Positions 34,000 through 50,553 of a DNA stretch of 50,553 nucleotides are shown here, in pieces. Each line of letters begins with the position of its first letter. Within the stretch, counting starts at the first letter, position 1. Location of the stretch: the sequence record DRR378314_60, one strand, 5' to 3'. Below the pieces are notes generated by a model. That model was not told the origin of the DNA. It was given only the letters and a program-made list of their open reading frames with translations, and ran no database searches. The position numbers and the translations under genes were made by a program.

Positions 34000-34036
34000 A
34001 CAAGCGTATCAAACGGCTATCGGCAGAAACCCAACT

Positions 34037-34068
34037 AAAAAGGCCCTAATGATTAGGGCCTTTTCTTT
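34037..34068. terminator. Bidirectional intrinsic terminator
   Basis: AAAAAGGCCCTAAT-G-ATTAGGGCCTTTT between convergent genes. Confidence 0.8.
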
Positions 34069-34096
34069 TAGCGTTTCTGCGCTGCCTTCTGTTGCC

Positions 34097-34807: not shown

Positions 34808-34907
34808 GAGTATGCATTTTGCAAAGTGGGTCAAAATAATAGCACACCTTGTAACAGCTTTTTGAACGTGTTCTGCCCCCGCACTCAATAACAAGTGCAA
34901 CAAGCAA

Positions 34908-34942
34908 TAAAAAAAGCCGATGCAGACTAGCTGCACCGGCTT
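34908..34942 (-). terminator. Intrinsic terminator downstream of gabT
   Basis: Minus strand AAGCCGGTGCAG...CTGCATCGGC followed by a T run. Confidence 0.75.
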
Positions 34943-35032
34943 CTATCAACACTCTCTATATATCAGCACACTTATCAGCGCTCTCTACAAACGCTTCTAT
35001 TGGCGCTTAACTAACCAATGAGACGCTAGATA

Positions 35033-36310
35033 TTACGCTGTAAGCTCTTCGAGCAATTCTTCAACAATCGTCAACCCTTCTTCAAGGATGCTGTCTTCAA
35101 TAGTGACCGGCATCAAGAAGCGGATCGTATTACCGTAAAGCCCACACGACAGCAGGATAAGCCCCTTCTCCCGTGCACGTTTGCACATGGCTGCAGCGAG
35201 TTCTGGGTCCGGCGATTGATCAGCTGCAACAATATCCAGTGCCGCCATCGAACCTAAGTGACGCACGTTTTCGACACAGGCAAAGCGTTGCTGCCACTGG
35301 GTAAAGCGCTGCCCCAGCACTTCTCCTAAGGCTTGGCTCTTCTCAAGAATTTTTTCTTCTTCGAATACTTCAAGCACCGCTAAAACGGCAGCACAAGAAA
35401 CCGGGCTGCCTGAGTAGGTGCCACCCAGCGAGTTAGGGCCACACGCATCCATATGCTCAGCTGTTCCCACGACGGCTGAAATCGGCATGCCACCGGCCAT
35501 ACTCTTAGCCATGGTCATGATGTCAGGCTCAACACCACTGTGTTCAATGGCAAACAGCTTACCGGTACGGCCAAAGCCAGACTGAACTTCATCGACGATC
35601 ATCAGCATGCCGTGCTCGTCGCAAATTTCACGCACCGCTTTAAGGAAGCTGGCCGGTGCAGGATAGAACCCGCCTTCACCCAACACAGGCTCAATCACGA
35701 TAGCCGCGGTGTCTCTTGGGTTGGCATCGGTCTTCAGCGTCATTTTAAGACCGCGGATAGCGTCTTCTTCGCTGACCCCATGGAACGGAACGGGGTAAGG
35801 CGCACGGAAAACATTCCCCGGCATGCTGCCGAAATCAGCCGAGTAAGGCACCACTTTACCGTTCATTGCCATGGTCATAAAGGTACGGCCATGGTAGCCA
35901 CCATCGAAGCAGATCACGTTATTCTTGCCGGTGGCGGCACGCGCAATCTTGACGGCATTCTCCAGCGCTTCAGCCCCGGAGTTAACCAGCATGACTTTGC
36001 CATGGCCGCGCACAGGCGTGAGCTGACTGAGTTTTTCAGCGACTTTCACGTAGCCTTCGTAAGGAATAACGGTTTGGCAAGTGTGCATCACCCGACCTAA
36101 CTGCTCCCTAACCGCTTCGACTACCTTAGGATGGCAATGGCCGATATTAAGCACGCCAATACCGCCCGCAAAATCAATAATACGGTTACCATCCGCATCC
36201 CAGATAATCGCGTTTTCAGCACGGTCCGCAAATTGCGTTGCAGGGCTGGCGGCACCATTAGCGACATATTTCTGTTTAAGCTCATTCAGCTGTGCATTGC
36301 TCATCTTCAT
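35033..36310 (-). CDS. gabT: 4-aminobutyrate/5-aminovalerate aminotransferase
   Basis: [43 protein letters not shown] and AKS PLP motif. Confidence 0.93.
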
Positions 36311-36344
36311 TTACTGCATTCCTCAGTTAATTAGTGAAAATCGC

Positions 36345-37790
36345 TTATAGGCCGCCAACACAGACGTATTTCAACTCAGTAAACTCATCAAGCCCATGAC
36401 GTGAGCCTTCACGGCCCAGCCCAGACTCTTTCACCCCACCAAAGGGCGCTAGCTCGGTAGACAGAATGCCTTCGTTAACGGCTACCATGCCGTACTCCAG
36501 CCCTTCCATTACGTGCCAAATTCTGCGGTAGTCGCGGGCATAGAAGTAAGCTGCCAGCCCGAACTCAGTCGCATTCGCCATGGCAATGGCTTCTTCGTCG
36601 GTCTCGAAACGGAACACAGGCGCCAAGGGACCAAACGTCTCTTCACGGGCAACCCGCATGTTGTCGGTCACATCAGCAATAATCGTCGGTTCGAAGAAAG
36701 TACCGCCCAACGTGTGCGGCTTGCCGCCACAGACCAAACGCCCACCCTTTTCCAACGCATCAGCAATGTGGGACTCGACCTTTTCGACCGCAGCCTGATT
36801 GATCAACGGGCCTTGCATAACACCATCATCCAGCCCATTGCCCACGTTCAGTTCAGCCACCCGCTTGGCAAACTTCTCAACAAATGCCTCGTAAACGCCG
36901 CTTTGCACCAAGAAACGGTTGGTACACACACAGGTCTGGCCAGAGTTGCGATACTTGGAGGCAACAGCCCCTTCAACGGCGGCGTCTAGGTCGGCGTCAT
37001 CAAACACGATGAAAGGGGCGTTACCGCCTAACTCCAACGATACTTTTTTGACTGTACCGGCACACTGAGCAAGCAGCTTTTTACCCACTGGCGTAGAGCC
37101 CGTGAAAGAGAACTTACGCACGCGCGGATCGGTGGTTAACACCTCGCCAATGGGTGCAGGCTGGCTGGCCGTGACCACATTGATTACCCCAGCGGGCAGG
37201 CCAGCAAGCTCAGCCAAGCGCGCCACCGCCAACGCCGTGAGTGGCGTTGCTTCTGCAGGTTTGATTACCACCGTACAGCCTGCCGCTAAAGCGGGAGCGC
37301 ACTTACGGGTGATCATTGCCAGCGGGAAGTTCCAGGGCGTAACGGCGGCCACAACGCCAATGGGTTCGCGAAACACCAGAATGCGCTTATCGACACCATG
37401 GCCCGGCAAGGTTTCACCGGCCATACGCTTGGTCTCTTCGGCATAAAACTCGACAAATGACGCGCCATACGCCACTTCACCGCGGGACTCTGCCAGCGGC
37501 TTGCCCTGCTCCAACGTCATTAGCCGAGCCAGGTCTTCCTGGTGCGCCATGATGGCGTCGAACCAGGCGCGCAACAGCGTTGCACGCTCTTTCGCAGTAC
37601 GCTTTTTCCAGCCCGGTCCTGCTGCCTCTGCTGCGGCAACCGCTGCTCGTGCACCATCAGCATCCAGGTCAGGGACTTCTGCTAATAGCTCGCCATTTGC
37701 CGGGTTAGTGACCGCAAAGCGCTTTTCAGCACCGCACCACTCTCCGCCAATAAATGCGTCAGGTATCAAAATATCGGGTAACTCACTCAT
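36345..37790 (-). CDS. gabD: NAD(P)-dependent succinate/glutarate-semialdehyde dehydrogenase
   Basis: TPWNFP, FTGST, LELGGNAP, NSGQTCVC, EETFGP and PFGGVKESG motifs. Confidence 0.93.
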   Translation of the reverse strand: MSELPDILIPDAFIGGEWCGAEKRFAVTNPANGELLAEVPDLDADGARAAVAAAEAAGPGWKKRTAKERATLLRAWFDAIMAHQEDLARLMTLEQGKPLAESRGEVAYGASFVEFYAEETKRMAGETLPGHGVDKRILVFREPIGVVAAVTPWNFPLAMITRKCAPALAAGCTVVIKPAEATPLTALAVARLAELAGLPAGVINVVTASQPAPIGEVLTTDPRVRKFSFTGSTPVGKKLLAQCAGTVKKVSLELGGNAPFIVFDDADLDAAVEGAVASKYRNSGQTCVCTNRFLVQSGVYEAFVEKFAKRVAELNVGNGLDDGVMQGPLINQAAVEKVESHIADALEKGGRLVCGGKPHTLGGTFFEPTIIADVTDNMRVAREETFGPLAPVFRFETDEEAIAMANATEFGLAAYFYARDYRRIWHVMEGLEYGMVAVNEGILSTELAPFGGVKESGLGREGSRHGLDEFTELKYVCVGGL

Positions 37791-38177
37791 CTTGTTTTCC
37801 TTTTTGCCATGACATTAGAGCGTGCTCTCAAACGCTGGCCGCGCCTCCCACGAACTCACTACAACGCCATTGCCTGTACTTCCGAAAGCACTACCGAGCC
37901 AGCTTCTGCATTTTCAGATAGGCAGCATCAACCGTAATGACTAACAAAAATATCTACATTTATAAAAAACGTCAAAATATATTTTTAGCATATACACTAA
38001 AAACTGGACGATGGGGTTGGATGACACCGAAAATGGTAGCTAGGCTGCGGGCAGGATTGGTACAAAAAGCGATCAAGGCGTGTGCCTCAGCTTTTCCGAC
38101 CAGGAAACAGGCCTTTATCGGGTATCGCTTTCGGATAAAATTAATCTGAAAAAGAGGCCGCCCCTACATCGGCGAAA

Positions 38178-38756
38178 ATGAACAACTTAACGGCTAACAC
38201 CACCTTAAAGCGCCCTACCCACTGGGCACTGTTCAGCGTGATAGCACTGATGTTGATAGGCAGCGGCACGCAGGCCGTTGGTGATTCACACGGCGACAGT
38301 ACTTATAGCGACAGCACCAACAGCGAGTGCGGCCTGACGGAGCAACAACAGGAAATGCTAACGCTGGTGAACGAGGCACGAAACAACGCCCGTCAATGTG
38401 GCGATCAAGCATTTCCAGCAGCCAGCCCACTAACCTGGAGCTGCCAACTGGAGGCCGCTGCCGCAATGCACGCCAGCGATATGGCCAACAACGACTACGT
38501 TAGCCATACCGATGCTAACGGCGCAGGAATTGAGCAACGCGCTAATCAACATGGCTACACGTGGCAAGCCTTGGGTGAAAATATTGCTGCTGGGCATACA
38601 TCTATCGCCGCCGTGATAAACGGCTGGTTAGAGAGCCCCGGCCATTGCAGCAATCTGATGAATGGCACCTTCACCGAAATGGGCATGGCCAAAGCCAGCA
38701 ATGCTGATTCGCGCTATACCACCTTCTGGACACAGATGCTGGGGACCCCCCGCTAA
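38178..38756 (+). CDS. Secreted CAP (SCP-like) domain protein
   Basis: Signal peptide; LVNEAR, HASDMA, GENIAAG and WLESPGHC.N motifs. Confidence 0.88.
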   Translation: MNNLTANTTLKRPTHWALFSVIALMLIGSGTQAVGDSHGDSTYSDSTNSECGLTEQQQEMLTLVNEARNNARQCGDQAFPAASPLTWSCQLEAAAAMHASDMANNDYVSHTDANGAGIEQRANQHGYTWQALGENIAAGHTSIAAVINGWLESPGHCSNLMNGTFTEMGMAKASNADSRYTTFWTQMLGTPR

Positions 38757-38762
38757 CCCTTC

Positions 38763-39242
38763 TTAAAACCCACCGTAATGAACCGCCGAAATCGCATTCT
38801 TGGGCGAACCATCCACCAGCTTGGTGCTGTAAGTTAAGTACACAAAAGTTTCGGTTTCAGCATCGTGCATGCGCACCACGCGCATATTCTTAAATAGCGC
38901 AGAGCGGCGCTGGTTAAAAACGACCTCTTGCTCGTCTACCTCATCAGGGTCAAAGACGATCTCTCCCGTTTGCCGACAAGCCACGCTCGCCTCGCTAGCT
39001 TCCTCAGCCAGCCCGACCGCACCCGATAGGCCGCCCACCTGAGAGTAAGAGAGATAGCAGGAGATCCCCTGCACTTTTGGGTCGTCGAAGCGCTCCACTT
39101 CAATCGTACTGTTCGGGCCAATCAACCTAAACTCCGTTCGCACGCTGCCAATATGGGCATCCTGCGCCAGAAGCGCTGTAGGCAGCAGTAACGAAGAGAT
39201 CATCGCAAGCGACGTGATGGCAATAGCGGGTTGGAAACGCAT
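38763..39242 (-). CDS. creA: CreA family protein
   Basis: FDDPKV.G..CY.S, S.ACRQ.G, S.LFK and LVDGSPKNAIS motifs. Confidence 0.9.
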   Translation of the reverse strand: MRFQPAIAITSLAMISSLLLPTALLAQDAHIGSVRTEFRLIGPNSTIEVERFDDPKVQGISCYLSYSQVGGLSGAVGLAEEASEASVACRQTGEIVFDPDEVDEQEVVFNQRRSALFKNMRVVRMHDAETETFVYLTYSTKLVDGSPKNAISAVHYGGF

Positions 39243-39363
39243 AGCAATGTCCTTAGCAGGTGCAGCAGAAACGGCAAAACAAGAGCATACCTGATACCGG
39301 CAGAGTCGGGGCAGTCAAGAGAGGCTAACTGTCGAAATGGGAAATAGATGGTAAAAGCAAGAA

Positions 39364-39390
39364 TGGAGCCGGGACCTGGCAGGAGTCGAA
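39364..39390 (-). other. Possible att site: degenerate tRNA/tmRNA 3'-end remnant marking the left border of the satellite
   Basis: Minus strand TTCGACTCCTGCCAGGTCCCGGCTCCA (T-loop ... CCA); the sequence turns AT-rich immediately to its right. Confidence 0.45.
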
Positions 39391-39579
39391 AAATCACAGT
39401 AAACAATTGAATTATGGATATTAAATATAAAAGACAAAATCTCAATATACCAAATAATATACCAAAACCGCTGTTTGCAGCCCGCTAACTGCTCGTTATT
39501 TATTATCATCAATCACAGGCGATCCTGTACGATGTATATATGGACTGCTTACGGGCATGAACAATATTGATGGTGATTG

Positions 39580-39650
39580 GTACAATGCAGCATTTGCAGC
39601 TGGTTTGGAGCGCAGCGGAAAAAAAGTCCGAAACCTTGAACTTGTTATTT
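39580..39650 (-). repeat. Degenerate integron attC-like site after the HNH gene
   Basis: AAATAAC (contains the TAA stop) ...CGGAC-N-TTTTCCGCTGCGCTCCAAACCAGCTGCAAATGC; aligns without gaps to 41597-41666. Confidence 0.7.
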
Positions 39651-40748
39651 TTGTAATACAAAAATTGGAATTTCACCCTCCCAAAGCTCTCCATTACCCC
39701 ACTCTAAATTTATATATGCTTTGAATCGACTATGCACTAATCCAGCGTTAGATACTTGAACGCGAAGAAAACGTTTAACAAAATGTAGGGAAGGTGTTTT
39801 TTCTTCCTTGTTTATGCGTTCAACTGGTATCAACGATAAACGGATGAGCTCCATAAGTATTAGTCTACTAAACATCTCCAAATCATCTTTATAATCGTAA
39901 TAATAACTTGTTGCTAAAGAGCCTAGCTCTTTTTCATGATCTATTTCTCCTTTAATAGTACCTAAGCACATAGAGATCATTTGTTTAGCGTTATCAATCC
40001 CTTCAACCATTTCCAGCCTTCCATCAAGAATTGAAATATCTCCAGTTTCATCAATTCTCATACCCACACCTAAATCATGAGGATTAGTTGCCAGTGGCTT
40101 CTTATCTACATCTATGTATAAAATATATCTACCCTCACGAGAGACTTCTATTCTTATATCTAGTATTCTCCTTGCATCCCCTTGTGACTCAATAACAACG
40201 TATGTTTCCGCATCAGGCAAAGAACTAAAATCTAAAACATAATGATGCAGCGAGCCTTCATTTCCTATTAACGAAGCGATTAATTCAAAACTCCACTCAT
40301 GGAAGTGAATCGCACTCCAACGGGCGAAATAAATTATTCCATTACCTAACTGAATTAAAGTAATATCTTTGTTTTCATTTTCATGCGCAGGTAGTTTAAG
40401 GCTATCTGCAGCTTTTTTTTCAGCTTGCGCTTTCCAATCATGTAATGTATTAGCTGAATATTCAGTGTAATCAGCATCGATCAAGTTTCCATGGTCTCTG
40501 CACATCCAAATCCCATTTGAGATATGCCTTCTTTCATCGGGAGTCATTTTAGGATTGTATCTAGGCCCTCCTGAAGCGGCAGCATGAATATGGGCAGCAA
40601 TACCATTGTTGACTCTTTTAGTAGGATCACCAGAGTTTGGGCCGACTGTATTTCTACCGCATCCAGGAAATGAGCATTTCCAACTAACGCGTTCTGCCAT
40701 TATCCTTTTGTCATTTGGTAAGAATTCATCCCGTTTTTTTATACTCAT
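39645..40748 (-). CDS. HNH endonuclease fused to a C-terminal gp25/GPW/DUF2634-like (baseplate wedge) domain
   Basis: N-terminus CSFPGC...AAHIHAA..GGPRY...NGIWMCRDH..LID; C-terminus IDETGDISI.DG.L..VEG....KQ.I...LGT.KGE....ELGS; GGAG RBS. Confidence 0.7.
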   Translation of the reverse strand: MSIKKRDEFLPNDKRIMAERVSWKCSFPGCGRNTVGPNSGDPTKRVNNGIAAHIHAAASGGPRYNPKMTPDERRHISNGIWMCRDHGNLIDADYTEYSANTLHDWKAQAEKKAADSLKLPAHENENKDITLIQLGNGIIYFARWSAIHFHEWSFELIASLIGNEGSLHHYVLDFSSLPDAETYVVIESQGDARRILDIRIEVSREGRYILYIDVDKKPLATNPHDLGVGMRIDETGDISILDGRLEMVEGIDNAKQMISMCLGTIKGEIDHEKELGSLATSYYYDYKDDLEMFSRLILMELIRLSLIPVERINKEEKTPSLHFVKRFLRVQVSNAGLVHSRFKAYINLEWGNGELWEGEIPIFVLQK

Positions 40749-40852
40749 AACTCTCCGTTCACGAGAAGGACATAAGGCATGCGCTAGGGGCGGAAAGACC
40801 GCCCCAGACAAAAAAGGCGAAAGAAACAGCTAGCTATCTTCCAGTGCTAGAC

Positions 40853-41317
40853 CTATGACTGTTGCCATTTTTTATTTAAATTCTTGATATTGTTATATGG
40901 TGACGCTTCTCCGAAATCCTCTTCATGTTCTGATATAATATCTCGCACTAGGTTTCTATACTCGGCTCGCCAATCTTTATCACTTATGTAACCTTTTTCT
41001 ATGCAATAACACAGCCTATCAAGCGCATTAAAATAACTCTCCTTAGTAGTATTAAAGAAATCACACAATATTTCCAAACCACTTGTTTCTAATACGCCCT
41101 GTCTATCAGCCTCTCTAAGTGCTTTTGCAGCTTTATCAAACTCAAGCTTTCTCGAATTCATTTGAGTTTCTATTTCAAGAACGATTCTCAATGAGTCCAT
41201 CTTTTGATTCTTAACTGCGATAGCAATCTGCGAGTTAATCTTTCTTAGCTGACTAAAAGCAATCCAAGCTCCTACTGCGGCTATTATAAAAGTCCCCACA
41301 TCCATATTAAACGTCAT
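40853..41317 (-). CDS. Single-pass membrane protein, DUF4760-like
   Basis: N-terminal TM (GTFIIAAVGAWIAFSQL); C-terminal YFNALDRLCYCIEKGYISD resembles the DUF4760 pattern. Confidence 0.55.
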   Translation of the reverse strand: MTFNMDVGTFIIAAVGAWIAFSQLRKINSQIAIAVKNQKMDSLRIVLEIETQMNSRKLEFDKAAKALREADRQGVLETSGLEILCDFFNTTKESYFNALDRLCYCIEKGYISDKDWRAEYRNLVRDIISEHEEDFGEASPYNNIKNLNKKWQQS

Positions 41318-41320
41318 TAA

Positions 41321-41578
41321 TTACTTCCCTTTCACCCTAACTAAAATTTCTTTTGCTTTTCTTGTGTTAATTATAGTTTTCTTTGCAGATTGCTCTTCAA
41401 ATATGGGAGTCAGCGGAGCTGCATACTCATATTCTTCTGAACTTAATTCAAAATTTCGCAAAATCTCGTTTTGCTTTTCCAATATTTCATCAGTCGATAA
41501 ACATTTCCATTCAAGCTCATACTTGCTATACAAGTACTCTCGTAATTCTTCTAGCGATGTAATTTCTGTCTCTCTCAT
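41321..41578 (-). CDS. Small hypothetical protein (85 aa)
   Basis: AAGGAG RBS before ATG 41578; ends 3 bp before the next ORF. Confidence 0.6.
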   Translation of the reverse strand: MRETEITSLEELREYLYSKYELEWKCLSTDEILEKQNEILRNFELSSEEYEYAAPLTPIFEEQSAKKTIINTRKAKEILVRVKGK

Positions 41579-41596
41579 GAATTTCTCCTTTACAAA

Positions 41597-41666
41597 GTAA
41601 AACCCGCATTTGCGGCTAGATAGAAGCACAACGGAAAACCAGTCCGTTAACATGCGCTTATTAGCG
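41597..41666 (-). repeat. Degenerate integron attC-like site after the HEPN-motif gene
   Basis: CGCTAAT (contains the TAA stop)-AAGCGCATGTTAACGGACTGGTTTTCCG...GCCGCAAATGCGGGTTTTAC; imperfect hairpin with a bulged base. Confidence 0.7.
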
Positions 41667-42149
41667 ATTAACAATAGGCTCGAGTTTAGCCTTGGCTTCT
41701 TCGAAAGCCCGAATTACATGTCTCTTGAGATAAATCCCTTTTGACCCAAAGAAAAAACAAACGTCGTCGTCATATAAAGACACTTGTTCGAAGTCACCTA
41801 TTTTCAATAAGTTTTCTTTACCAAAGGCCACGTTGAATGTGGCTTTCACATTACCTTTTTCGATATAATGATTATCCGAATCGGGATGACAAAGTGCATC
41901 TCTAACGTATTTGATCAAATCACTCACGTCATTAATCCGCTCCCCTAGTGGAACATCGTCTGAAAAAGCTATACGAGAAGAGTATTTTTCTGCCTTATAC
42001 ATCAAATCTCTAAGCGAAATCAGCATCTCAATAAACGCGGCTCTCATTAATACATGTGATGAGTTTTTCGGATCGAAAATCCCACAATTTAGTAGCTCCT
42101 CAACTCGACGAAGAGCCCCTTGAATGTCTGACTTATCAAAAAAATCCAT
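41661..42149 (-). CDS. Hypothetical protein with HEPN-like Rx4H motif
   Basis: Helical N-terminal half containing VRDALCH; alternative GTG start at 42158. Confidence 0.55.
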   Translation of the reverse strand: MDFFDKSDIQGALRRVEELLNCGIFDPKNSSHVLMRAAFIEMLISLRDLMYKAEKYSSRIAFSDDVPLGERINDVSDLIKYVRDALCHPDSDNHYIEKGNVKATFNVAFGKENLLKIGDFEQVSLYDDDVCFFFGSKGIYLKRHVIRAFEEAKAKLEPIVNR

Positions 42150-42534
42150 TTTTACCACGCGAATTAGATGGATTACTAAAAAGTATTAGGCTGCCGTACT
42201 AAGATCCGTTGCACGTACTGCCATGCTTCCCGGAAAAAACAGTTTGCCAAATTACCTCTCGTCACCTCAAACGGCAGCTGGTAATTTGCAAATCAATTGG
42301 ATACCAGCTAATTAGAATTGATCAGCTACCACATTCTCACTTCATTATATTTAAGTAGTATTAATCATTTCCCTACGTCAGTACAACCTAATCGTCTGAG
42401 ACTTTAGACCACTCATTGCCGCCTTTTTCTGGAACGCTGCGCTGTAGTCAGGTCTTATCAGGAATGCCTGTCTCACCTATCGACCTGCCAATAGCTTAGC
42501 TTTATGGGTTTGCTCCTCAACTCAATATTGAAGT

Positions 42535-42690
42535 TGCACAAATCCGCATGAATTCGCATGACTCCCATGCACCCAAATCCTGCCTACAGCCCAGAGATAG
42601 CGGGCTTTGGCCCGTTTGGTGGCGCGCATGAAGAAATACCCCACAAGCGAACTCCGCAGGCGGGTGGGGGACAACGCGCCGTGTGTGGCG
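42535..42690 (+). other. P2/P4-type cos (packaging) region
   Basis: GCACAAATCCGCATGAATTCGCATGA repeats, a GCCC...GGGCTTT hairpin, then GCATGAAG...GCAGGCGGGTGGGGGACAACGCGC resembling the P2/P4 cohesive end; lies next to the Sid/Psu-like gene as in P4. Confidence 0.6.
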
Positions 42691-42778
42691 GCCTAGAAGG
42701 CGGATGCCCTCCCCTGGCAACCGCCTTCATCGGGCGCTCAATGGCTCACATCACATCAGCTGCCTTGCCGGTCGGACA

Positions 42779-42806
42779 CAAAAAAGCCCCGCACTTGGCA
42801 GGGCTC
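42779..42806 (-). terminator. Intrinsic terminator after the Sid/Psu-like gene
   Basis: Minus strand AGCCCTGCCAAGTGCGGGGC followed by a T run. Confidence 0.7.
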
Positions 42807-42829
42807 GGCCAGGGGATTTCTCACTCCTG

Positions 42830-43747
42830 CTATGCCGCGCTATCGCTGTCCAACTCCTCGAGGCTGGGCACATACTCCATTTGGTTCTCAAGCTCCTTGA
42901 GACGCGACGAGAAGGCAAACGGTGACGGTATCTCGTCTTTGGACGCTTCACAAGCCAGCGTTTCGGGAACCTTCATAGCCGTTTTGGAAGCGACGCCCTG
43001 GGGCAGCCTTCGCATCAGCAGCTCGCCCAACGCGGCCATTTGCCTCGAATGCACCTTGCGCTTCACTTGGGCGGTTTCTTCATCGCTCAACAGTGAATAG
43101 ATGGCGGTTCCCGACTGTCGAGACACATCCATGTGGAAAGTGGCCATATAAAGATGATTGTTACAGATGTTGGTTTCAATCTGGTCGAACAAGCGCGGCA
43201 CGCTTTCACCGATCGCACGCAGACTGTCTGCATCCGACAATCCATTGATACCGTCTAAAAGGCAGTTGAATGCCACCAGATCGTTCAAGTCGCGCACCTT
43301 AGTGACTAGGGCCTTGCGAGCCAAGTAAGTGTGCATCTTCAGCCACTCGGCCTGAGGCTCCAGCATCGTGATCATTTCCCTGGTCTGCTCGGCTTCCAAT
43401 TTCCATTGCGTTTTCTGCTTGAGCTGGTCGCGCATGGGCTTGCTTTGCTTGCCCAGGGCCTTGACGAAACCCAGCCGCCATGCCGAATCAGCGGCTTGTT
43501 TTTGTTGCTCCAATGCACTGAGCGTTTTTTTCAGGCGGTTCATCTCCCTGGTGATTTCATCTAGCTTGTTCCGGCGTGTCAGATAGACCTTGAGCTGGGC
43601 ATCTACCTGTTCTTGGCGCTTTTCTTTTGAGATACCCGTTCTTACAATCGCGGGTACATCCACGTATTCGAAATTGTGCTCGGCTTTGACGAGTCGAAGA
43701 GCGTTGCTTCCCATTTCCTTGTTTTCAATTTCACTGTTCATGGCCAT
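42830..43747 (-). CDS. P4 Sid/Psu-like coiled-coil capsid-interacting protein
   Basis: Long coiled coil; ADSAWRLGFVKALGKQSKPMRDQ resembles the P4 Sid segment DADDWRTAFRAAGGVLSDELKQ (recalled, not searched); AGGAG RBS. Confidence 0.6.
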   Translation of the reverse strand: MAMNSEIENKEMGSNALRLVKAEHNFEYVDVPAIVRTGISKEKRQEQVDAQLKVYLTRRNKLDEITREMNRLKKTLSALEQQKQAADSAWRLGFVKALGKQSKPMRDQLKQKTQWKLEAEQTREMITMLEPQAEWLKMHTYLARKALVTKVRDLNDLVAFNCLLDGINGLSDADSLRAIGESVPRLFDQIETNICNNHLYMATFHMDVSRQSGTAIYSLLSDEETAQVKRKVHSRQMAALGELLMRRLPQGVASKTAMKVPETLACEASKDEIPSPFAFSSRLKELENQMEYVPSLEELDSDSAA

Positions 43748-43998
43748 TGTGCGGTTCTCCTGGTTGGTTGCTGGGGTTAGCTGAGCGTGGTTGTGTGAGG
43801 TCGGCATCAATAACTCCTGGGGCTAGCAGAAACATACGTGCGGATGGGGGTGCCATGGCGCCACCGGCTAAAAGAGAGCAAAACCAACAACGCCTGCCAG
43901 AAAGGGGGAAGGGTCGGAGCGCTGATACGCTTGGCCAACGTTCGCATAACGAACAAAGCCTCTCCCCTATAATTCCCCTGACTGATTTCAAAAACGGG

Positions 43999-44205
43999 GG
44001 CAACGTGGCAACACCGGTAACGCCTTTGATTTAATTGGTATTTTTTTTGGCAACCTGTAGCCGCTTTTTTAAAACGGCAACAGACAGAGTCAGAGGCTCT
44101 ATAGATATAAAGATATGTGTTGCCTTTGTTGCCACCTCTCTTATTAATAGGCAACGGCTGCAAGCCGCGTAGTTGCTGGGTGTTGCCGTTGTAGCCAGTG
44201 TTGCC
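43999..44205. repeat. Iteron array, putative satellite replication origin
   Basis: 5x GGCAAC and 4x GTTGCC plus variants (GGTAAC, GTAGCC) with AT-rich spacers, directly downstream of the helicase gene. Confidence 0.75.
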
Positions 44206-44240
44206 ACAGAAACTAGGTTCACGCGTAAAAAGCCTATCCA

Positions 44241-46034
44241 TTATTCACCCCCTCGCTCTGCATCCAACTTGTCGGGATCGATGACGAAAAAGCGCGTGCT
44301 CCCTCCTCCTGGCAGGCGGTAGTTTTTCTGGCGGCGGCCACTGTCGGTTTTGGCTAGCACATTGTAGGTTTCCAGGGTGCGTATCACGCGGTCACGGCCA
44401 TAGCCTGCGGCGGCCTCGGTCAGTGAGGCACGGTTGAACAGGTAAAGGCGTTTGCCGTCCTCGATCTCGAAGTAACCTGCTCGATGCTTAATGTTGGAAT
44501 TGGGTAGCTCAGCAGCAATATTGGAAAAGCGGCTATCACCGTGCATGGCGATAAAATCAGATAGCGCGCTAAGTATTTGCCTATCTTCCGCGTTACCGTC
44601 GCCGACCCTTGCGATCCACTCGCGGAAAAGCTGGCGGCTTGCGTTGGCTGCGGTGCCTTTTTCCCATGGCAAAATCCCGTAGATGGTCGCCAGTTCTCCC
44701 GCTAGGCCAATGATGGCGAAGCGATCCGCCACCCTGCCCGCCTGGGAGCCATCGGAGTTGAACCCTTCCCGCACTTCAGCAAAGCGCTGATAGAAAACGT
44801 CGGGGTCAGTCTCTTTAATCAGCCGCTCGACAAATGCAGGCCCCACCACGCCGAAGTGGTGCGCGGTGGCCGTGGTCAGCTTCCGATGGAAGGTAGCCCC
44901 GCTCATGCCGTGTACGTCATCAAAGGCGCGATAAGTGCGGGTGCCCGCGTTCACGTCCACCATGCGCAGCTCTGCCCCGGCGTGGGCGGCGTTGCCGGAT
45001 ATGGCCGCATGTTCGGAAAGTGAACGCTCCCCGCTGGATAGCGCCAATACGCGCCAGTAAAGCTTCGGCCGCCCTTCCCGCTCGCGGGTCATGGTGCCCT
45101 TGCCGGTGCCGTTAGCGATGGCGTAGGCCATTTCTTGCACCCGTTTGGGGTCGGCGCGCTTGATTTCGTCCAGAATCAGCACCGTGTCATTACGTGACGA
45201 TGCCTCGATCTCGATACCGCCCCGCGACATATCCCAGGACGCGGCAAACCGGCTTGGGTCGCCCCACACTGAGGCGGCGATTGCCTGGGCAAGTGATTTA
45301 CCGCTCGAGGAGTCACCGACTAGATGCACACCCCCGCCGTTAACCCCTACTTTGGAAAGCAGCGGCCCGGCCAATGCGCAGCACACGGACAGGATCAGTA
45401 CCGGGTTGCCCTGGCAGTAGTACGCCAGCTCGCTTTGCCAGCTTTCCAACGTGCCACGCTCGGAAAAGAGGTGTGCCCCTTTGCCGCTATCCTGAAAGCG
45501 CACGTCCTGGCCGCCCAGGATCTTGCTAGGCAGTACGAACGCGCCGCTGGCGTCGTGCCAGCCGGGTTTGGTGGTGGTGGCCAGCACGCGCTTTAAATCG
45601 TGGTGGCTGGCGATATACGCGGGCACATAGCGGCGCTGGTGGTACTCCACCTTTAAGCCCTGGCGGAAAAGGGCTTTCAATACCTCCTCGCCTTTACCGG
45701 CCAGCGCTTCCATGGGCATGACGTACTCGACCACGCGGCCCCGGTGTTTGAAGTGGAGTAGGCGGCCTACGCTGCCGTCATCGCTGTTGACCGTCTCCGC
45801 GTCCACATGCAGTGGCGCGCAGACCCATAGATCGAAGGGCTGGCCAACGTCATCACCCTGCCCTTGCTTGATACCGTGAAACCAAGTGCCCGCCTTGAAC
45901 AGCTTGCCGTCTACCAGGGTCTGGCCTTCGTACACGGCATAGCTTGGCCGCTCCAGGGTGTCGATCTCTGGCGCTGTCGGTTGGCCAACCAACGCAAGGT
46001 GGCTTTGCTGCTCGCGCTTTTTGTCACTCATCAT
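44241..46034 (-). CDS. DUF927-domain replication protein/helicase
   Basis: PGWH...FVLP, Walker A GDSSSGKS, Walker B LILDEI, ANGTGK, SSGE and RVADRFA motifs. Confidence 0.85.
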   Translation of the reverse strand: MMSDKKREQQSHLALVGQPTAPEIDTLERPSYAVYEGQTLVDGKLFKAGTWFHGIKQGQGDDVGQPFDLWVCAPLHVDAETVNSDDGSVGRLLHFKHRGRVVEYVMPMEALAGKGEEVLKALFRQGLKVEYHQRRYVPAYIASHHDLKRVLATTTKPGWHDASGAFVLPSKILGGQDVRFQDSGKGAHLFSERGTLESWQSELAYYCQGNPVLILSVCCALAGPLLSKVGVNGGGVHLVGDSSSGKSLAQAIAASVWGDPSRFAASWDMSRGGIEIEASSRNDTVLILDEIKRADPKRVQEMAYAIANGTGKGTMTREREGRPKLYWRVLALSSGERSLSEHAAISGNAAHAGAELRMVDVNAGTRTYRAFDDVHGMSGATFHRKLTTATAHHFGVVGPAFVERLIKETDPDVFYQRFAEVREGFNSDGSQAGRVADRFAIIGLAGELATIYGILPWEKGTAANASRQLFREWIARVGDGNAEDRQILSALSDFIAMHGDSRFSNIAAELPNSNIKHRAGYFEIEDGKRLYLFNRASLTEAAAGYGRDRVIRTLETYNVLAKTDSGRRQKNYRLPGGGSTRFFVIDPDKLDAERGGE

Positions 46035-47016
46035 GTCCCCCTTGCTGGCGATACCAGCGCGCCAGATCGTTGAAGTCCGTCAACCTATGGGGGGCTTCCT
46101 TTGGCCAGTCGGGGAAAAGCACTAACGCGCCTACCGCCAATGCGGCAGCGTTTGCGGCGGTACGGCCCGGATTCCCAGGAGTAGCGCGGTCATCATCACC
46201 GGCTATGACCATTTCGAGGTGGCCATACCGCTCACACAAGGCACGCGCCACTGGTTCCAGGTTGCCTGCGTGCATGGCACATGCCACCGGCTCGCGGGTA
46301 TGGGCGTAGATGGTGGCACCGGTAGCCCAGCCCTCGCAGACATAAAGCGTCTTTCCAGGCATTACCCGGCCAAGCGGTGCATAAGCGCCCTGCACTTGCC
46401 CACCTTTCAAAAAGCGCTTATTGCCTTGGGCGTCGATCAATTGCACGTTGACCAGCTCCCCGTGTGCATAAAGCGGCACCAATATCTGGCCTTGCGGCGT
46501 TTGCCGAAGCCGGTAAGGGCTTATGCCTTTGTCCACCAAGTAGGCGTGACCAGGGCATGCCGGTTGCGCGCTTTGCCAAAGCCGTTTGGCGAGTTGGGCC
46601 GCTTTCTGCAAGGCGGCCATGCGCTCGGTTTCGGCCTGTTGGCGTAGCTGGCTTTTGGTAGGCGTAGAGGTAATAGGGGGTGAGGCTTGCGCCTCACCGT
46701 TGCGTTGGAAGATTCCCAGCCCTAAGCGCTGGTCGATCTGCATGGCCGCCTCAACTTGTCGGCAGCCTTGCAAGTAGCTAAGCAGCGATACCAAATCGCC
46801 ACCGTGGGCGTCTGAGTCGGCAAAGTCGTTCCACTTACCACTGGCCAGCGATACACCAAACGAGCCTTTACCTTGGTCGTCTCGGGCCGTGTTGCGCGCT
46901 ACCCACTCGCTACCCTGGCGGACGCCATCAGGCAGCCATTCGGCTAGTAACGCCTCAACGTCGTTTAATGCGGATATGGCTACTTGTTGGATCTTTTGAA
47001 CGGTCGATTTAGCCAT
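46024..47016 (-). CDS. DNA primase (Toprim domain), satellite type
   Basis: N-terminal R.D...GSF.V....G.W.DFA....GGD; HAYL..KG; CEGWATG; IAGDDD; NPG; DFND. Confidence 0.85.
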   Translation of the reverse strand: MAKSTVQKIQQVAISALNDVEALLAEWLPDGVRQGSEWVARNTARDDQGKGSFGVSLASGKWNDFADSDAHGGDLVSLLSYLQGCRQVEAAMQIDQRLGLGIFQRNGEAQASPPITSTPTKSQLRQQAETERMAALQKAAQLAKRLWQSAQPACPGHAYLVDKGISPYRLRQTPQGQILVPLYAHGELVNVQLIDAQGNKRFLKGGQVQGAYAPLGRVMPGKTLYVCEGWATGATIYAHTREPVACAMHAGNLEPVARALCERYGHLEMVIAGDDDRATPGNPGRTAANAAALAVGALVLFPDWPKEAPHRLTDFNDLARWYRQQGGHDE

Positions 47017-47320
47017 GCTCGCCCCCCTTCCTGGCAGGCGCTGCTTGGCCTTTAGCGACTCGCCGGGCAGCCATGAGCAAATCGAGTGAATCAGCAAGCA
47101 ATAGTCGACCAGATAACGCCACATTAGCTAGGTCACGCGCATCAGCGCAGGCCCCAGGGGCATCTAAAGCGCTTAGTGTCATCATCAGATTACTTACCGC
47201 TTCCAGGCGAGTTTCGCACTGGTCGAATAGATCCTCTGCTCTGGCGCGGGGGTCGATTAAAAGGCACTCTGCCTCGGTAAGGCAAAGCGCATCTTCAAGA
47301 CGTGGCGTGGGCTTAAACAT
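47009..47320 (-). CDS. Hypothetical satellite protein
   Basis: GGAGG RBS; overlaps both ash and the primase gene, consistent with translational coupling. Confidence 0.65.
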   Translation of the reverse strand: MFKPTPRLEDALCLTEAECLLIDPRARAEDLFDQCETRLEAVSNLMMTLSALDAPGACADARDLANVALSGRLLLADSLDLLMAARRVAKGQAAPARKGGEHG

Positions 47321-47864
47321 GGGCCACCTCCTCAACAACGAGGCGTTCCAGGTCAATCATCAATTGGGAATGGTCTTCGGAAGAAATGTGGCCAAGCGCG
47401 GCGGCCATGCGCACCAGTCCCAGCAGGTAAGAAAGCTGTTCGGGGCGACGGTTGACGCGGTAGGCAATTAGCTTTGTGCCGATTAAGGCAGTGGCAATTT
47501 GCGAGGGGGGAATTTGGGTGTGCGTAGACGCACCTTGGCTGTGATTGGCCATGGGTAAGACTCCTTGGATATTGGAGTCGCCACGATCCTTCCTACGGGA
47601 TTGGGTGGCGACCGTACGCGGGGTAGGAAACCGGCATCCAAGGGAACCGGCCACGCCGAAACGTGCCCACGCACAGCCGCCATAAAGACACACTACAGGC
47701 ATGAAAAAAGCGCCTGCAATGGTGAGGGCGCTGTAGCGCCTTGGATAGATCGGGTTCCTACGCCCGGCTGTAGATTTTGCTACAGCTCGGCCATGATAAT
47801 CATTCCTCAGTGTTCCTCGCAAGCTTTCGAGGCAGCGAATGTCGCTTAATTTGATATGCTTCAT
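47313..47864 (-). CDS. ash: Ash family protein (P4 cI/kil/epsilon region homolog)
   Basis: AKS.AGRRNP, GAFF, YGG and G..TP motifs; located between alpA and the primase. Confidence 0.75.
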   Translation of the reverse strand: MKHIKLSDIRCLESLRGTLRNDYHGRAVAKSTAGRRNPIYPRRYSALTIAGAFFMPVVCLYGGCAWARFGVAGSLGCRFPTPRTVATQSRRKDRGDSNIQGVLPMANHSQGASTHTQIPPSQIATALIGTKLIAYRVNRRPEQLSYLLGLVRMAAALGHISSEDHSQLMIDLERLVVEEVAHV

Positions 47865-48005
47865 GTATTCCCTTTGATGTTTCTTCGCTTAGGCTCCAGT
47901 GCTCCCCGCGCTGGGGCCTTTTTCTACGATCTACAGGCAAAGCTTCCCCATACCCGCTGAGCATTGGCCCAGCAGCGTTAAAGCTCTTTGGTGGGGTTTA
48001 GGGGT

Positions 48006-48233
48006 CTAGCAGTCGGTTTCGATGTAACCGGCAGGCAAGCCATGGCTGAAGTGCTGGCCGTTACTACCTGGGCCATTCAATAGCTTGGCGTAGACGTTCC
48101 CCATAGTGCCCTTACGGAACGTTTTTTGATGCGGGGCGCGCATTGCGTCCGCCATGGCAGTTTCAATCGCGGCCAGATCTTCAGTGGTCAGGTTTAGCGT
48201 GGTGCCGTTGATGGTGATCTCGAATTGGCTCAT
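48006..48233 (-). CDS. Small hypothetical protein (75 aa)
   Basis: AGGAG RBS; ATGA overlap with the alpA stop. Confidence 0.6.
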   Translation of the reverse strand: MSQFEITINGTTLNLTTEDLAAIETAMADAMRAPHQKTFRKGTMGNVYAKLLNGPGSNGQHFSHGLPAGYIETDC

Positions 48234-48535
48234 GCGCGTTGCTCCTGCGGTTGGGCGGTCATGCGTAGCGGTGCGGGGCGGTTTTCCAGGGTCTGGCGTT
48301 TGCGCTCCTCGAGGCAGTGAGCGATCCAGCTATCCACCTCCTCCTCAAGCCAAGCAACGCTTTTGCCACCAATGGGCACCGGGGCCGGGAACGTGCCCTG
48401 GCGGATGCCTTCATAAATGGCCGAGCGGCTCTTGCCGGTTTTCTGCTCCACCTCTTTACGGCGTAACAGCCGGTTGCCGAGCTGGATCTTGTTCACCGTT
48501 TTGAAAGGCGGTGCGTGGGTGGTGAGTTCAGGCAT
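48230..48535 (-). CDS. alpA: AlpA family transcriptional regulator/excisionase
   Basis: LLRRKEVEQKTGKSRSAIY..I..G.FP.PV.IGG.SVAWLE.EV..WI. Confidence 0.92.
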   Translation of the reverse strand: MPELTTHAPPFKTVNKIQLGNRLLRRKEVEQKTGKSRSAIYEGIRQGTFPAPVPIGGKSVAWLEEEVDSWIAHCLEERKRQTLENRPAPLRMTAQPQEQRA

Positions 48536-48726
48536 TGTTTCGTGTCCTCGCGGTATCGTTCCGGGTATGTACCCTTATGGCCCTATGAAGCTTGACGGTT
48601 ATTGGAAAGGCTCGCCACAGCGGGGCGTTGTGCCACGATGCTCGCACAACGGGATACAACACTTGGTCTTGCACAAGTACAAAAAAACCGCTGTAGAGAC
48701 AGCGGTACGCAGAAGGATCTATATGG

Positions 48727-50553
48727 CTATTTTCTAAGTGCTGCCGCAAAGTTACACTCAGTTATCAGCACTCTATCAATATGATTTTTAATCTTAGTTT
48801 TTATCACCTTATGCTTAAAATCACTTAGACCAGTAGCCAAGCAGTTTAAATAATCTCGTACTGATATAAGCCACTCTAGCTCCCGTAACTTCATACCGCC
48901 TTGCACCTCAAAAAGCCTGGTTGAAAGTGCTATAAAAGCCAACCTCCTTTCTTCAGGGCCTAATTCAACTAGAATATTGGCAAACTCTGACTCTGGCACA
49001 TAAGAAAGTATTGGAATCTCCACATATGGATTTCGAGAAATATCATTATCACAAACCAAACTATAAAACCTTCTTGCATCAACTTCCAAGCAATTAAGCA
49101 GCTCTTCACCTCTAGAAAACAAAAAGGAATTCAACTCTTCTTTTATCTTTTTTAACAATACAACAGATAAATCATTAAAATCCTGATTATTCTGCTCAAG
49201 ATAGGCAAGACCGTATGCTGATTGAGAAAAATCCAACAAGCTACTTAGGCTATAATAAACGCCTATCTTATTATTGTTAAAATAATTATCAATATCCAAA
49301 TCAGCTACATTAAAGAAATCTTCAACGTAATCGTAACAAGCGGAAACAGCATCACTATAGGACTGGTCAACAAATGACTTACGAGCAAGCCAAATTTTAG
49401 AACTAAAAACATGTAAAATCTCTGAAGGCTCTTTGTAGTAACGATTATTGAATTTTTCTTCGAGCTGCTTGATAGCTTGATAAAATACTTCTTCATCCCT
49501 ATCATACCAATGCCAGATAACACTCCACTCCTGCTCACCGCTTTTAGCAGAAAAATATGGGCTTTCTAATAAATAACTATGTGAACGACCAGAGTCAGCA
49601 AACCCGTTAACAATAAAGTAGTGCCAAGCATCGTTTGATAAAAAATTACTTCTTAAATCAATACCTTTATATTTTTCAACAATACTATCAAAATTACTTT
49701 TCTTATAATTACCAGACTTAACTAAAAAATCATACATCATATAATCTTGTCTATTTAAAACATCATCTGCACTTAAACTTCCTGAGTGGTACTCAAAAAA
49801 CAGGCAAAAATACATACTCAAAAAATTTTCAAAAGCTACGTTTTCATCATCCTTCATATATTTAAAAAATATTAAAACATCAACCACTTCATAGATTGCT
49901 TGACGAAGTATCCTAAGGTTACAAAATCCTGAGCTTAGAAAAACATTTTGTAAAATTTCAATTTTTTCATTTAAAAGAATGACACCTTCTTTATGATTAA
50001 CTTCTTTCAAAAAAGACTCACTAGCTTCTTTAAAATTCGTTTCAAAAGATAATGTTTTTCCTATCACTTTTTCTTTATTATCCAAGTAATTTCTATCGAC
50101 TTCTCTAAGCTTTTCTTCATTAGCTAGAATTATTACTTTTACTCCGTCTTGCTCTAGAAGCGCACTTATAAAGCCAAAAACCTCTTTAATATTACCTTGA
50201 TATCTTTCTAAATCATCAAATACATAAAATTTATTTTTCCTAATCGGACTTACAAAATCATCTAATGATAAATTCACACCTATAGAGTTGTATTTAAGCA
50301 AAGAACCCAATAACGAGCCTGTGACCTTTACGCCTTTCTTACTTGCTACAGGCATGAAAACAGCTATCAATGCCTCATAAACTTCATTAATATTTGACAG
50401 ACCACTTAAAGATACGTAAGCAAATTTATTTTTATTACCATGATGAAGCTCTTTGAGATACCCTTTGATAAAAAAGGTCTTGCCAGCGCCCCACTTAGCA
50501 TTAATTAAGACGGAGTAACCTGGCTCATTTAAGCCAAGATAATAATCCAAGTA
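48727..50553 (-). CDS. KAP-family P-loop NTPase, 5' end outside the window
   Basis: Walker A NAKWGAGKT, YVSL.G, Walker B VFDDLER, IILANE, KEKVIG and NLR motifs; strongly AT-rich. Confidence 0.85.
   Translation of the reverse strand, partial: YLDYYLGLNEPGYSVLINAKWGAGKTFFIKGYLKELHHGNKNKFAYVSLSGLSNINEVYEALIAVFMPVASKKGVKVTGSLLGSLLKYNSIGVNLSLDDFVSPIRKNKFYVFDDLERYQGNIKEVFGFISALLEQDGVKVIILANEEKLREVDRNYLDNKEKVIGKTLSFETNFKEASESFLKEVNHKEGVILLNEKIEILQNVFLSSGFCNLRILRQAIYEVVDVLIFFKYMKDDENVAFENFLSMYFCLFFEYHSGSLSADDVLNRQDYMMYDFLVKSGNYKKSNFDSIVEKYKGIDLRSNFLSNDAWHYFIVNGFADSGRSHSYLLESPYFSAKSGEQEWSVIWHWYDRDEEVFYQAIKQLEEKFNNRYYKEPSEILHVFSSKIWLARKSFVDQSYSDAVSACYDYVEDFFNVADLDIDNYFNNNKIGVYYSLSSLLDFSQSAYGLAYLEQNNQDFNDLSVVLLKKIKEELNSFLFSRGEELLNCLEVDARRFYSLVCDNDISRNPYVEIPILSYVPESEFANILVELGPEERRLAFIALSTRLFEVQGGMKLRELEWLISVRDYLNCLATGLSDFKHKVIKTKIKNHIDRVLITECNFAAALRK

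Follow-up and report, generated by a model that had tools for sequence, protein, structure and literature searches.

Satellites of the P4-like family are defined by seven core genes (Integrase, AlpA, Alpha, Sid, Delta, Psu and Epsilon), with a psu-delta-sid operon ahead of alpA, epsilon and alpha (PMC10085698). According to that survey, they are found only in Enterobacterales, 93% of them in Enterobacteriaceae and the rest in Yersiniaceae, Pectobacteriaceae, Erwiniaceae and Hafniaceae; its supplements may list rare non-enteric cases. Variants without Psu (SatelliteFinder Type B#var06) are prevalent in Yersiniaceae, and the authors suggest that Sid may cover the role of Psu in them (PMC10085698). 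The known hotspot of P4 adjoins cos (PMC13586616). Here we describe a 50,553-nt stretch of DNA, DRR378314_60 (hereafter the window; coordinates are window positions), from a salt-loving marine bacterium of the Halomonadaceae. Its region 42535-48535 is probably the conserved core of a P4-lineage satellite, integrated in a Halomonas/Vreelandella chromosome and exploiting a P2-like helper. Our search of the literature found no Sid-bearing satellite for Halomonadaceae or Pseudomonas.

An initial annotation, made from the sequence alone, had proposed a minimal satellite, a hybrid in which a replication module like that of a phage-inducible chromosomal island (PICI) was combined with a Sid/Psu-like gene and a P2-type cos. 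The one-orientation module that it listed (alpA, small open reading frames (ORFs), a Toprim primase, a DUF927 helicase, iterons, a coiled-coil gene and a cos-like region) was borne out by Pfam and PHROG matches and by ORF calls, as was the satellite-type element with a Sid-family gene. We nevertheless read the element as a P4-lineage satellite and not as a PICI hybrid, because its C4 and isrK RNAs, AlpA, primase and (in a relative) integrase are similar to those of P4.

RESULTS

A core operon collinear with the left operon of P4

All genes of the central block of the window (42.5-48.6 kb) were called on the minus strand (Table 1). The G+C content of this block is 51-62%, compared to 29-42% in the flanks at 39.5-42.5 and 48.7-50.5 kb. 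We used record X51522 as the P4 reference. By sequence comparison, homologues of P4 AlpA/ORF88, of the isrK-like leader, of the C4/CI RNA, of the alpha-type primase domain and of Sid are present, and a non-coding block shows homology to the cos that P2-like prophages of this genus carry.

AlpA shares 54% identity with P4 ORF88 (E 6e-20). The primase is 38% identical to residues 129-291 of P4 alpha (E 8e-20) and is, judged by this similarity, a homologue of the primase part of that protein. From alpA to the primase gene, the operon is collinear with the P4 left operon: AlpA/ORF88, isrK-like leader, C4/CI RNA, small ORFs and alpha-type primase. The sole departure is the separate DUF927 helicase, which shows no similarity to P4 alpha and a weak match, far below the cut-off, to the SCC cassette helicase Cch1 (6e-12). 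The ‘PICI-like hybrid’ of the initial annotation does not agree with this collinearity.

The C4 antisense RNA (47601-47687) matches RF01695 over its full length, with 77.4 bits for a gathering score of 45, and the isrK-like RNA (47704-47786) matches RF01394 with 52.0 bits (gathering score 50). The model of the a1/b1 target, RF03163, aligned at 47747-47799 with 40.2 bits, below its gathering score of 46.7. In P4 itself, Rfam places C4 at 8420-8507 and isrK at 8615-8692, between ORF88 and epsilon. isrK is upstream of C4 in P4, and the order is identical in the window. Both RNAs were also present, ordered as in P4, in 3/3 related islands.

The initial annotation had assigned a 183-aa ORF at this place to ash. 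The name is right by position, as the ORF overlies the C4 and isrK RNAs like the old ‘cI’ ORF of P4, which lies over the C4 RNA and is Phage_ASH in Pfam (4e-16), but no Ash similarity was detected in the window ORF even at E<=1. Its upstream part overlaps both RNA genes, and its protein-coding part is probably confined to the last 79 codons (47313-47552).

When all 103 stop-to-stop frames of at least 40 aa in 42100-48800 were scanned with Pfam, only AlpA, Toprim_3 and DUF927 were returned, without any match to Ogr_Delta, Psu, terminase, capsid, Derepression or Phage_ASH. Since the scan covered every frame of this size, psu, delta, epsilon, terminase and capsid genes are truly absent from the visible part, and for a separate psu, a terminase and a capsid gene this is what had been annotated. 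The P4 epsilon matches PF25738 (Derepression) at 9e-51 and none of these frames does so; its positional equivalents (79 and 115 aa) belong to no known family. The same frames, together with a PHROG scan, yielded no second Sid/Psu-family ORF or Psu match, no small terminase, no PICI-type capsid morphogenesis gene and none of the genes of capsid-forming PICIs (cfPICIs: capsid, portal, head-tail and large terminase). Neither the small ORFs nor the Sid-like protein matched NCBIfam. The 115-aa and 75-aa ORFs found no family in Pfam, PHROGs or NCBIfam, and Atlas look-ups gave nothing usable for the 183-aa ORF and only unnamed clusters for the 115-aa ORF.

The coiled-coil protein is a remote homologue of Sid

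The first ~47 residues of the 326-aa protein are predicted to be disordered and are followed by a long helical hairpin; its acidic C-terminal tail is conserved. Its only PHROG match is phrog_6165 (E 0.0018), the family of P4 Sid, which Sid itself matches at 6e-116. This family was matched by 24/26 members of the window protein's own family at E<=0.1 (best 3e-5). A family profile search retrieved 62 proteins among 1.8 billion representatives. We scanned 43 of these against PHROGs, leaving out 13 fragments of <200 aa and 6 close relatives: 35/43 matched phrog_6165 at E<=0.001 (down to 4e-22) and none matched another family.

Intermediates connect the window protein to Sid. With hhalign, the family alignment of the window protein (A1) matched an alignment of 15 intermediates (A3) at 98.7% probability (E 2e-16, 232 columns), and A3 in turn matched P4 Sid at 97.0% (E 1e-10). 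The AlphaFold model of the protein (pLDDT 78.6) was compared to 350,542 PDB chains, among which the best was 7jw1_E, Sid in the P4 procapsid (Foldseek TM 0.65 by target); VIA-align superposed 227/235 residues with this chain at Z 11.2. No match at E<=0.001 was found by Foldseek in BFVD. We take this fold match as support for the sequence chain, not as evidence by itself. Taken together, the chained profile matches and the best fold match identify the product of 42830-43810 as genuinely, if distantly, homologous to P4 Sid. With a direct PHROG E-value of only 0.0018, it would probably escape a standard profile cut-off.

Named homologues come from Halomonas, Vreelandella, Billgrantia, Larsenimonas, Salinicola and Chromohalobacter, with one intermediate from Pseudomonas, and are annotated as hypothetical except for one automatic mis-name. 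Searches of 50,697 phage records with the Sid-like protein and the cos region (tblastn and blastn) gave one unrelated 34-nt match and no protein match.

A P2-type cos block exists in two variants

P2 has its cos just beyond the portal gene. The nearest genome of the genus, G001, contains a P2-like prophage with a capsid gene (PF05125, 2.5e-146), a gpP-type large terminase, a portal and Ogr. For the window and 11 genus loci, we aligned the 700 nt following the stop codon of the Sid-like gene. With 10/11 loci the window shares a terminator hairpin and then a conserved block, 100-330 nt past the stop. In six satellites the block, here called variant B, is 71-78% identical over 155 nt to a sequence beyond the portal gene of five P2-like prophages, whose cos regions are 84-90% identical among themselves. 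The P4 cos junction aligned to the prophage site across the P4 cleavage point with a score of 42 (shuffles 17.7+-2.2) and to a variant-B satellite with a score of 32 (shuffles 18.2+-2.2), which corresponds to a z of about 6-11. Judged by these alignments, the conserved block is a P2-type cos, at the level of the family.

The window and four loci of the genus, including the satellite of G001 itself, carry variant A. It keeps the right half, which is common to all satellites, and several flanking motifs, but its central ~40 nt differ, including the stretch which aligns with the P4 cohesive end. BLAST of the P4 cos junction against the window returned nothing above chance. Variant A is conserved in at least five intact elements of different species, with all flanking motifs common to phage cos. 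It was matched in 29/101 genomes of the genus; six of these loci were inspected and had cargo or host genes nearby and no portal. The variant-A core was not found in the five prophage cos regions, and a degenerate 18-mer of this core had one unrelated coding match in IMG/VR. In genome_contigs, 5/6 matches are satellites and the sixth, the 5-kb contig L063, carries variants B and A in tandem. The locus L020 (G005:C8) also has B then A, a few hundred nt apart. Such a tandem pair might serve two helpers.

In a tree of the Sid-like proteins, that of G001 (variant A) is sister to those of two variant-B elements, with 84% identity. Since A and B both occur within this clade, the cos core has been exchanged recently. 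With its flanking motifs kept, variant A may be a substrate of the known helpers; alternatively, its helper may be unsampled. What is most original about this element family is that its cos cores are exchangeable and occur in tandem.

A putative origin of replication and a candidate operator

Six exact copies of GGCAACA lie in 44007-44205, and eight in the other ~50 kb of the window (14 in total, for 9.5 expected from shuffles); their clustering is non-random, their total is not. These iterons occur in both orientations and flank an A+T-rich centre, an arrangement kept in 12/12 aligned elements, and we read the segment as a putative origin of replication. A 144-aa ORF (43807-44241) was dropped from the gene list: it overlies the iterons, has no family match and is probably not a gene.

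A dyad, GTTCG-N5-CGAAC, has a single match in the window (0.02 expected) and is kept, with small changes, in 12/12 aligned elements. Genome G001 has five such sites and its satellite one. From its sequence and conservation, the dyad is a candidate operator. We rejected it as an operator of the helper late promoters: it is absent from the G001 P2-like prophage, and the O-P intergenic region of this prophage has no matching dyad.

Separately, 30 nt within the primase gene (46217-46245) match the sequence left of the G001 prophage cos block at 87%; with an E of 0.007 in a small search, this is probably chance.

Related elements and their integration sites

The G001 element measures 13.3 kb between 17-nt repeats of the 3′ end of tRNA-Asn. 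Its order is int, SoFic, alpA, RNAs, small ORFs, primase, helicase, ori, Sid-like gene, cos, a deoxyribosyltransferase-like gene, QueC and OGG. Its integrase is 36% identical to P4 Int (E 1e-76). Elements in two other genomes, G109 and G110, sit at tRNA-Arg(CCT) and carry different cargo at the same two places. In 3/3 relatives examined, the integrase adjoins the tRNA.

An ORF with an Ogr/Delta zinc finger adjoins the integrase in 2/3 relatives, a position which in our element would lie beyond 50553. Thus the ‘no delta’ of the initial annotation holds for the visible part, but the absence cannot be claimed for the whole element. In G109 (L070 11061-11855) the finger is fused to an isochorismatase in a 264-aa protein, and in G110 (L071 13253-13669) it forms the C-terminus of a 138-aa ORF; both lie directly downstream of the integrase. 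Such an ORF may encode an activator like delta, or else a defence or decoy protein that makes use of a late-gene activator domain. Fused to other domains as they are, they may be cargo.

Among 101 genomes of the genus, 22 have a match to the Sid-like protein, which is full length in 11 (one with an in-frame stop) and fragmentary in the rest, and 20 have a P2-type capsid gene. The Sid-like genes of G060, G062, G055, G112, G047, G077, G022 and others contain stops or survive only as C-terminal fragments, yet keep their place beside a cos block, which shows that these satellites often decay in place.

We found no tRNA gene in the window, and the 3′ end of tRNA-Asn used in G001 is absent from it. 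The site of G001 which is syntenic with the left flank of the window is no empty att site and diverges into other DNA. There (L064 1490-1600), other DNA follows creA at the place where the window has the island. We take this DNA to resemble a fragment of an insertion sequence transposase, and the creA locus of G001 may be a general insertion site. For the G001 P2-like prophage, an att repeat marking its boundaries was sought and not found. In the same region, Rfam detects a tRNA (L011 10578-10651) ~1.5 kb beyond the prophage cos, which may mark the attachment site of the prophage near cos.

Extent of the island and its cargo

The window is 96% identical to G001 over 34000-39343, where synteny stops, and its last 11 kb are unlike host backbone. 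Among sequencing runs, the best match contained 0.36 of the query words, as contigs only, and no RNA run matched. The island is hence wider than 42535-48535: it reaches from the synteny break at ~39343 to a cargo gene (48727-50553) which runs off the window. The epithet ‘minimal’ had to be given up, as defence cargo lies on both sides of the core and the related element of G001 spans 13.3 kb between its att repeats.

Table 1. Features of the island, from the synteny break to the end of the window
Feature	Coordinates	Strand	Evidence or remark
Conserved stretch at the distal island end, just inside the synteny break	39372..39469		72% over 98 nt to the far end of contig L063, which also has cos blocks
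Cargo hotspot 2, four ORFs	39645..42158	-	G+C 35-42%
cos block, variant A	42534..42685	-	152 nt; alignment with related loci
Intrinsic-terminator-like hairpin and T-run after the Sid-like gene	42784..42806	-	hairpin kept in the alignment of related loci
Sid-family protein, 326 aa, coiled coil	42830..43810	-	phrog_6165, hhalign chain, PDB fold match
Conserved dyad GTTCG-N5-CGAAC, candidate operator	43940..43954		upstream of the Sid-like gene
Putative origin of replication, GGCAACA iterons	44007..44205		directly downstream of the helicase gene
DUF927 replicative helicase	44241..46034	-	PF06048 4e-70; phrog_1139 2e-78
Toprim primase	46024..47124	-	Toprim_3 2e-10; phrog_2249 1e-60
115-aa ORF, no assigned family	47009..47356	-	62-74% identical in G109 and G110
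183-aa long ORF (‘ash’ in the initial annotation)	47313..47864	-	only the C-terminus matches phrog_6684
79-aa likely true coding part of the 183-aa ORF	47313..47552	-	phrog_6684 2e-6 on residues 108-166 of the long ORF
C4/CI-type antisense RNA (P4-type immunity RNA)	47601..47687	-	RF01695, 77.4 bits
isrK-like leader with a1/b1-type target of the C4 RNA	47704..47799	-	RF01394 and RF03163
75-aa ORF, no assigned family	48006..48233	-	60-61% identical in G109 and G110
AlpA/Vis-type excision regulator	48230..48535	-	PF05930 4e-19; 54% identity to P4 ORF88
Cargo hotspot 1, KAP-family P-loop NTPase, 5′ end off the window	48727..50553	-	KAP_NTPase 1e-12; PADLOC PDC-S49 2e-134; G+C 29-32%

Models of defence systems match both flanks of the module. 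The four ORFs of hotspot 2 lie at 39645-40811, 40853-41317, 41321-41674 and 41661-42158. The first (388 aa) has an N-terminal domain of HNH nuclease type, with matches to phrog_34329 (1e-50), to PADLOC PDC-M68A (1e-24) and to models of endonuclease effectors; the other three matched nothing in Pfam, NCBIfam or PADLOC. At the same position, the relatives carry AbiV and Ppl (G109), a SMEK-domain protein and PDC-M68B (G110) or QueC and OGG (G001). The position of hotspot 1 is occupied by SoFic in G001, by a zinc finger fused to an isochorismatase in G109 and by AbiJ in G110. There are thus two defence hotspots, one on each side of the core.

Between cos and the cargo genes, ~230 nt (42290-42520) are conserved in most aligned satellites; Rfam matched nothing in them, and no ORF there has a family. 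The segment might serve the hotspot as a promoter or leader, or belong to the packaging signal.

DISCUSSION

Weighing the P4-lineage reading

Several observations weigh against an active, P4-lineage satellite of a P2-like helper. The visible part has no delta, epsilon or psu. With none of the 11 copies of the genus does the Sid-like protein share more than 51% identity, and set directly against P4 Sid it gives weak results (BLASTP E 0.014; hhalign of A1 against the single Sid sequence 10%). The Foldseek E-value for 7jw1_E is 0.25, and a Z of 11.2 is, by the tool's own note, within the range reached by chance for long-helix models. The P2-type cos that had been annotated is upheld for the 152-nt block, which is homologous to the prophage cos in position and flanking motifs, with a core that differs: over the 155-nt block, variant A of the window reaches only 51-55% identity with the cos sites of the five prophages, and it aligned to the P4 cos at chance level (score 18, shuffles 17.6+-2.3). 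The search for a P2-like prophage sharing this cos retrieved five whose site resembles variant B and none with variant A, in the genomes of the genus (101), in IMG/VR and among six genome_contigs matches. The dyad ahead of the Sid-like gene is missing from the G001 P2-like prophage.

A helper could be at hand in the genus, 20/101 genomes of which have a P2-type capsid gene. A P2 capsid gene is present in 7/22 genomes with a Sid-like match, against 13/79 without, and in 3/11 genomes with a full-length copy; the association between satellite and helper is weak and not clear, kin not being independent. Satellites need not live with their helper.

An unlikely but not negligible alternative is a satellite of a P2-like helper which does not redirect capsid size. 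Its Sid-family protein would then be Psu-like, as a decoration protein or Rho antagonist, or have some other role, and its DNA would be packaged as multimers or partly fill full-size heads. Structurally, Sid and Psu are homologous, and P4-like variants lacking Psu are common (PMC10085698); P4 Psu itself matches the Sid PHROG at 1e-10, and its structure (3rx6) aligned to our model at Z 8.9. Moreover, marine satellites are reported to be packaged as concatemers without capsid remodelling (PMC9618062, PMC10803314). The comparison of the coiled-coil protein with both families, which the initial annotation had called for, nevertheless favoured Sid. Besides the higher Z (11.2), 227 residues aligned to Sid for 173 to Psu, BLASTP found no match to P4 Psu, and hhalign gave 1.8% for it. 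Furthermore, the window protein covers positions 14-108 of the Sid profile and P4 Psu covers 102-231. As the match lies in the N-terminal half of the profile, which is absent in Psu, the protein is Sid-like and not Psu-like. The size of the related element (13.3 kb) is also close to the 11.6 kb of P4.

The island might instead be a domesticated or stranded defence island of satellite descent which is no longer mobilised, and whose variant-A cos has no living partner. We hold this to be somewhat less probable again. The missing variant-A helper would fit it; so would the ~11/22 genomes whose match consists only of partial or interrupted Sid-like copies beside the cos block and cargo, and the defence cargo, which is the most obvious selected content. 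However, the core ORFs of the window are all intact and its RNAs score over their full length. Variant A is kept, with its flanking motifs, in at least five intact elements of different species, and the occurrence of A and B within one tight Sid clade (84%), together with the two tandem elements, argues for ongoing selection on cos.

Finally, a PICI-family island that acquired a Sid-like gene and a cos site, as initially annotated, is very improbable: int, alpA, a separate primase and replicase, an origin directly downstream of the helicase, the single orientation and the weak resemblance of the helicase to that of an SCC cassette would suit it, and a typical P4-like element has itself been scored as a Type C PICI by SatelliteFinder (PMC10085698), but no small terminase or PICI capsid-morphogenesis gene was found in the 103 frames, and a set of P4 markers is arranged as in P4, namely the C4/CI RNA, isrK-like leader, ORF88-like AlpA, alpha-type primase, P4-like integrase and Sid.

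Comparison with described satellites

The P4-lineage satellite described here shares with P4 homologous Int (36%, in a relative), AlpA/ORF88 (54%), the primase domain of alpha (38%) and, remotely, Sid, as well as the isrK-like leader and C4/CI RNA, which are alike in order and both above gathering scores. In both, a P2-type cos follows the capsid-hijack gene, a likeness at family level; integration at a tRNA is seen in the relatives of the window element, and the circularised gene orders are broadly collinear. The hotspot next to cos mirrors the known hotspot of P4.

Four differences set the element apart: it has one orientation where P4 has divergent operons; the fused alpha of P4 is replaced by a primase and a separate DUF927 helicase without similarity to the alpha C-terminus; psu, epsilon and delta, present in P4, are not visible; and the cos variants are exchangeable. 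In addition, its origin lies between the helicase and the Sid-like gene, a second cargo hotspot lies between int and alpA, its Sid-family protein has 326 aa whereas P4 Sid has 244 aa, and its host belongs to Halomonadaceae, compared to Enterobacterales for P4.

Consequently, the element is not a P4-like member under the seven-core definition, because its visible part has AlpA, a partial alpha and a remote Sid, lacks psu, epsilon and a visible delta, and follows another order (alpA, RNAs, small ORFs, primase, helicase, ori, Sid-like gene and cos on one strand). By descent and presumed mode of action it is of the P4 kind and not a PICI. With so few recognisable P4 cores, profile-based classifiers would plausibly miss it, going by the core definitions published in PMC10085698.

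Type B#var06 also kept Sid and lost Psu, but retains delta, epsilon, a fused alpha and the psu-delta-sid/alpA-epsilon-alpha order, in Enterobacterales (PMC10085698); our element lacks, or has in unrecognisable form, two or three core genes more. Gram-negative PICIs share the integrase (seen in our relatives), AlpA, the primase-replicase, the single orientation and a helper-dependent packaging, which we infer for our element; integrase, AlpA and primase-replicase alone describe P4-like elements as well (PMC10085698). The Sid, the C4/CI RNA and the P2-type cos, in contrast to PICIs, are P4 features. PICMI and the marine VEIMEs are also small integrative satellites of marine Gammaproteobacteria with an integrase, an AlpA-type regulator and a primase; they are reportedly without capsid-remodelling genes and packaged as concatemers (PMC10803314, PMC9618062), whereas the present element has a Sid homologue and a cos.

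A model of capsid piracy

We infer capsid size redirection and mobilisation, and the element probably steals the capsids of its P2-like helper. The steps that we propose are modelled on the known P4 system. At rest, the C4/CI RNA would pair with its target in the leader and halt transcription from alpA to the helicase gene, as in P4 immunity. Growth of a P2-like helper would open the operon. The integrase (off the window, and in relatives of P4 type beside a tRNA) and AlpA would excise the element, which the primase and the DUF927 helicase would replicate from the GGCAACA iteron origin. The Sid-family protein would assemble as an outer scaffold on the gpN procapsid of the helper, giving a small shell suited to a genome of ~12-13 kb, and the helper terminase would cut and package the element at cos. 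The anti-phage defence genes in the two variable flanks would repay the host for keeping the element. For P4 itself, this mechanism is partly backed by PMC7552001 and PMC13586616.

Implications for P2/P4 piracy

We propose more tentatively, as a possibility less favoured than its absence, a P4-lineage family outside Enterobacterales in which one Sid-family protein is the sole piracy gene, without Psu, Delta and Epsilon, and in which cos is an exchangeable cassette. If so, the swaps between variants A and B and the tandem pairs would let a satellite switch helper lineages or serve two of them, and variant A would point to a P2-like helper lineage still unsequenced. The family also offers a natural ‘minimal’ hijacking set for testing, and two more defence hotspots to mine. 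Remote Sid profiles, C4/isrK RNAs and cos homology together provide a route to undiscovered satellites. A satellite with Sid, C4 RNA and a P2-type cos in Halomonas, with relatives in Chromohalobacter, Salinicola, Larsenimonas and Billgrantia and one Pseudomonas protein, points to a P2/P4 piracy that is older and wider than the enteric model.

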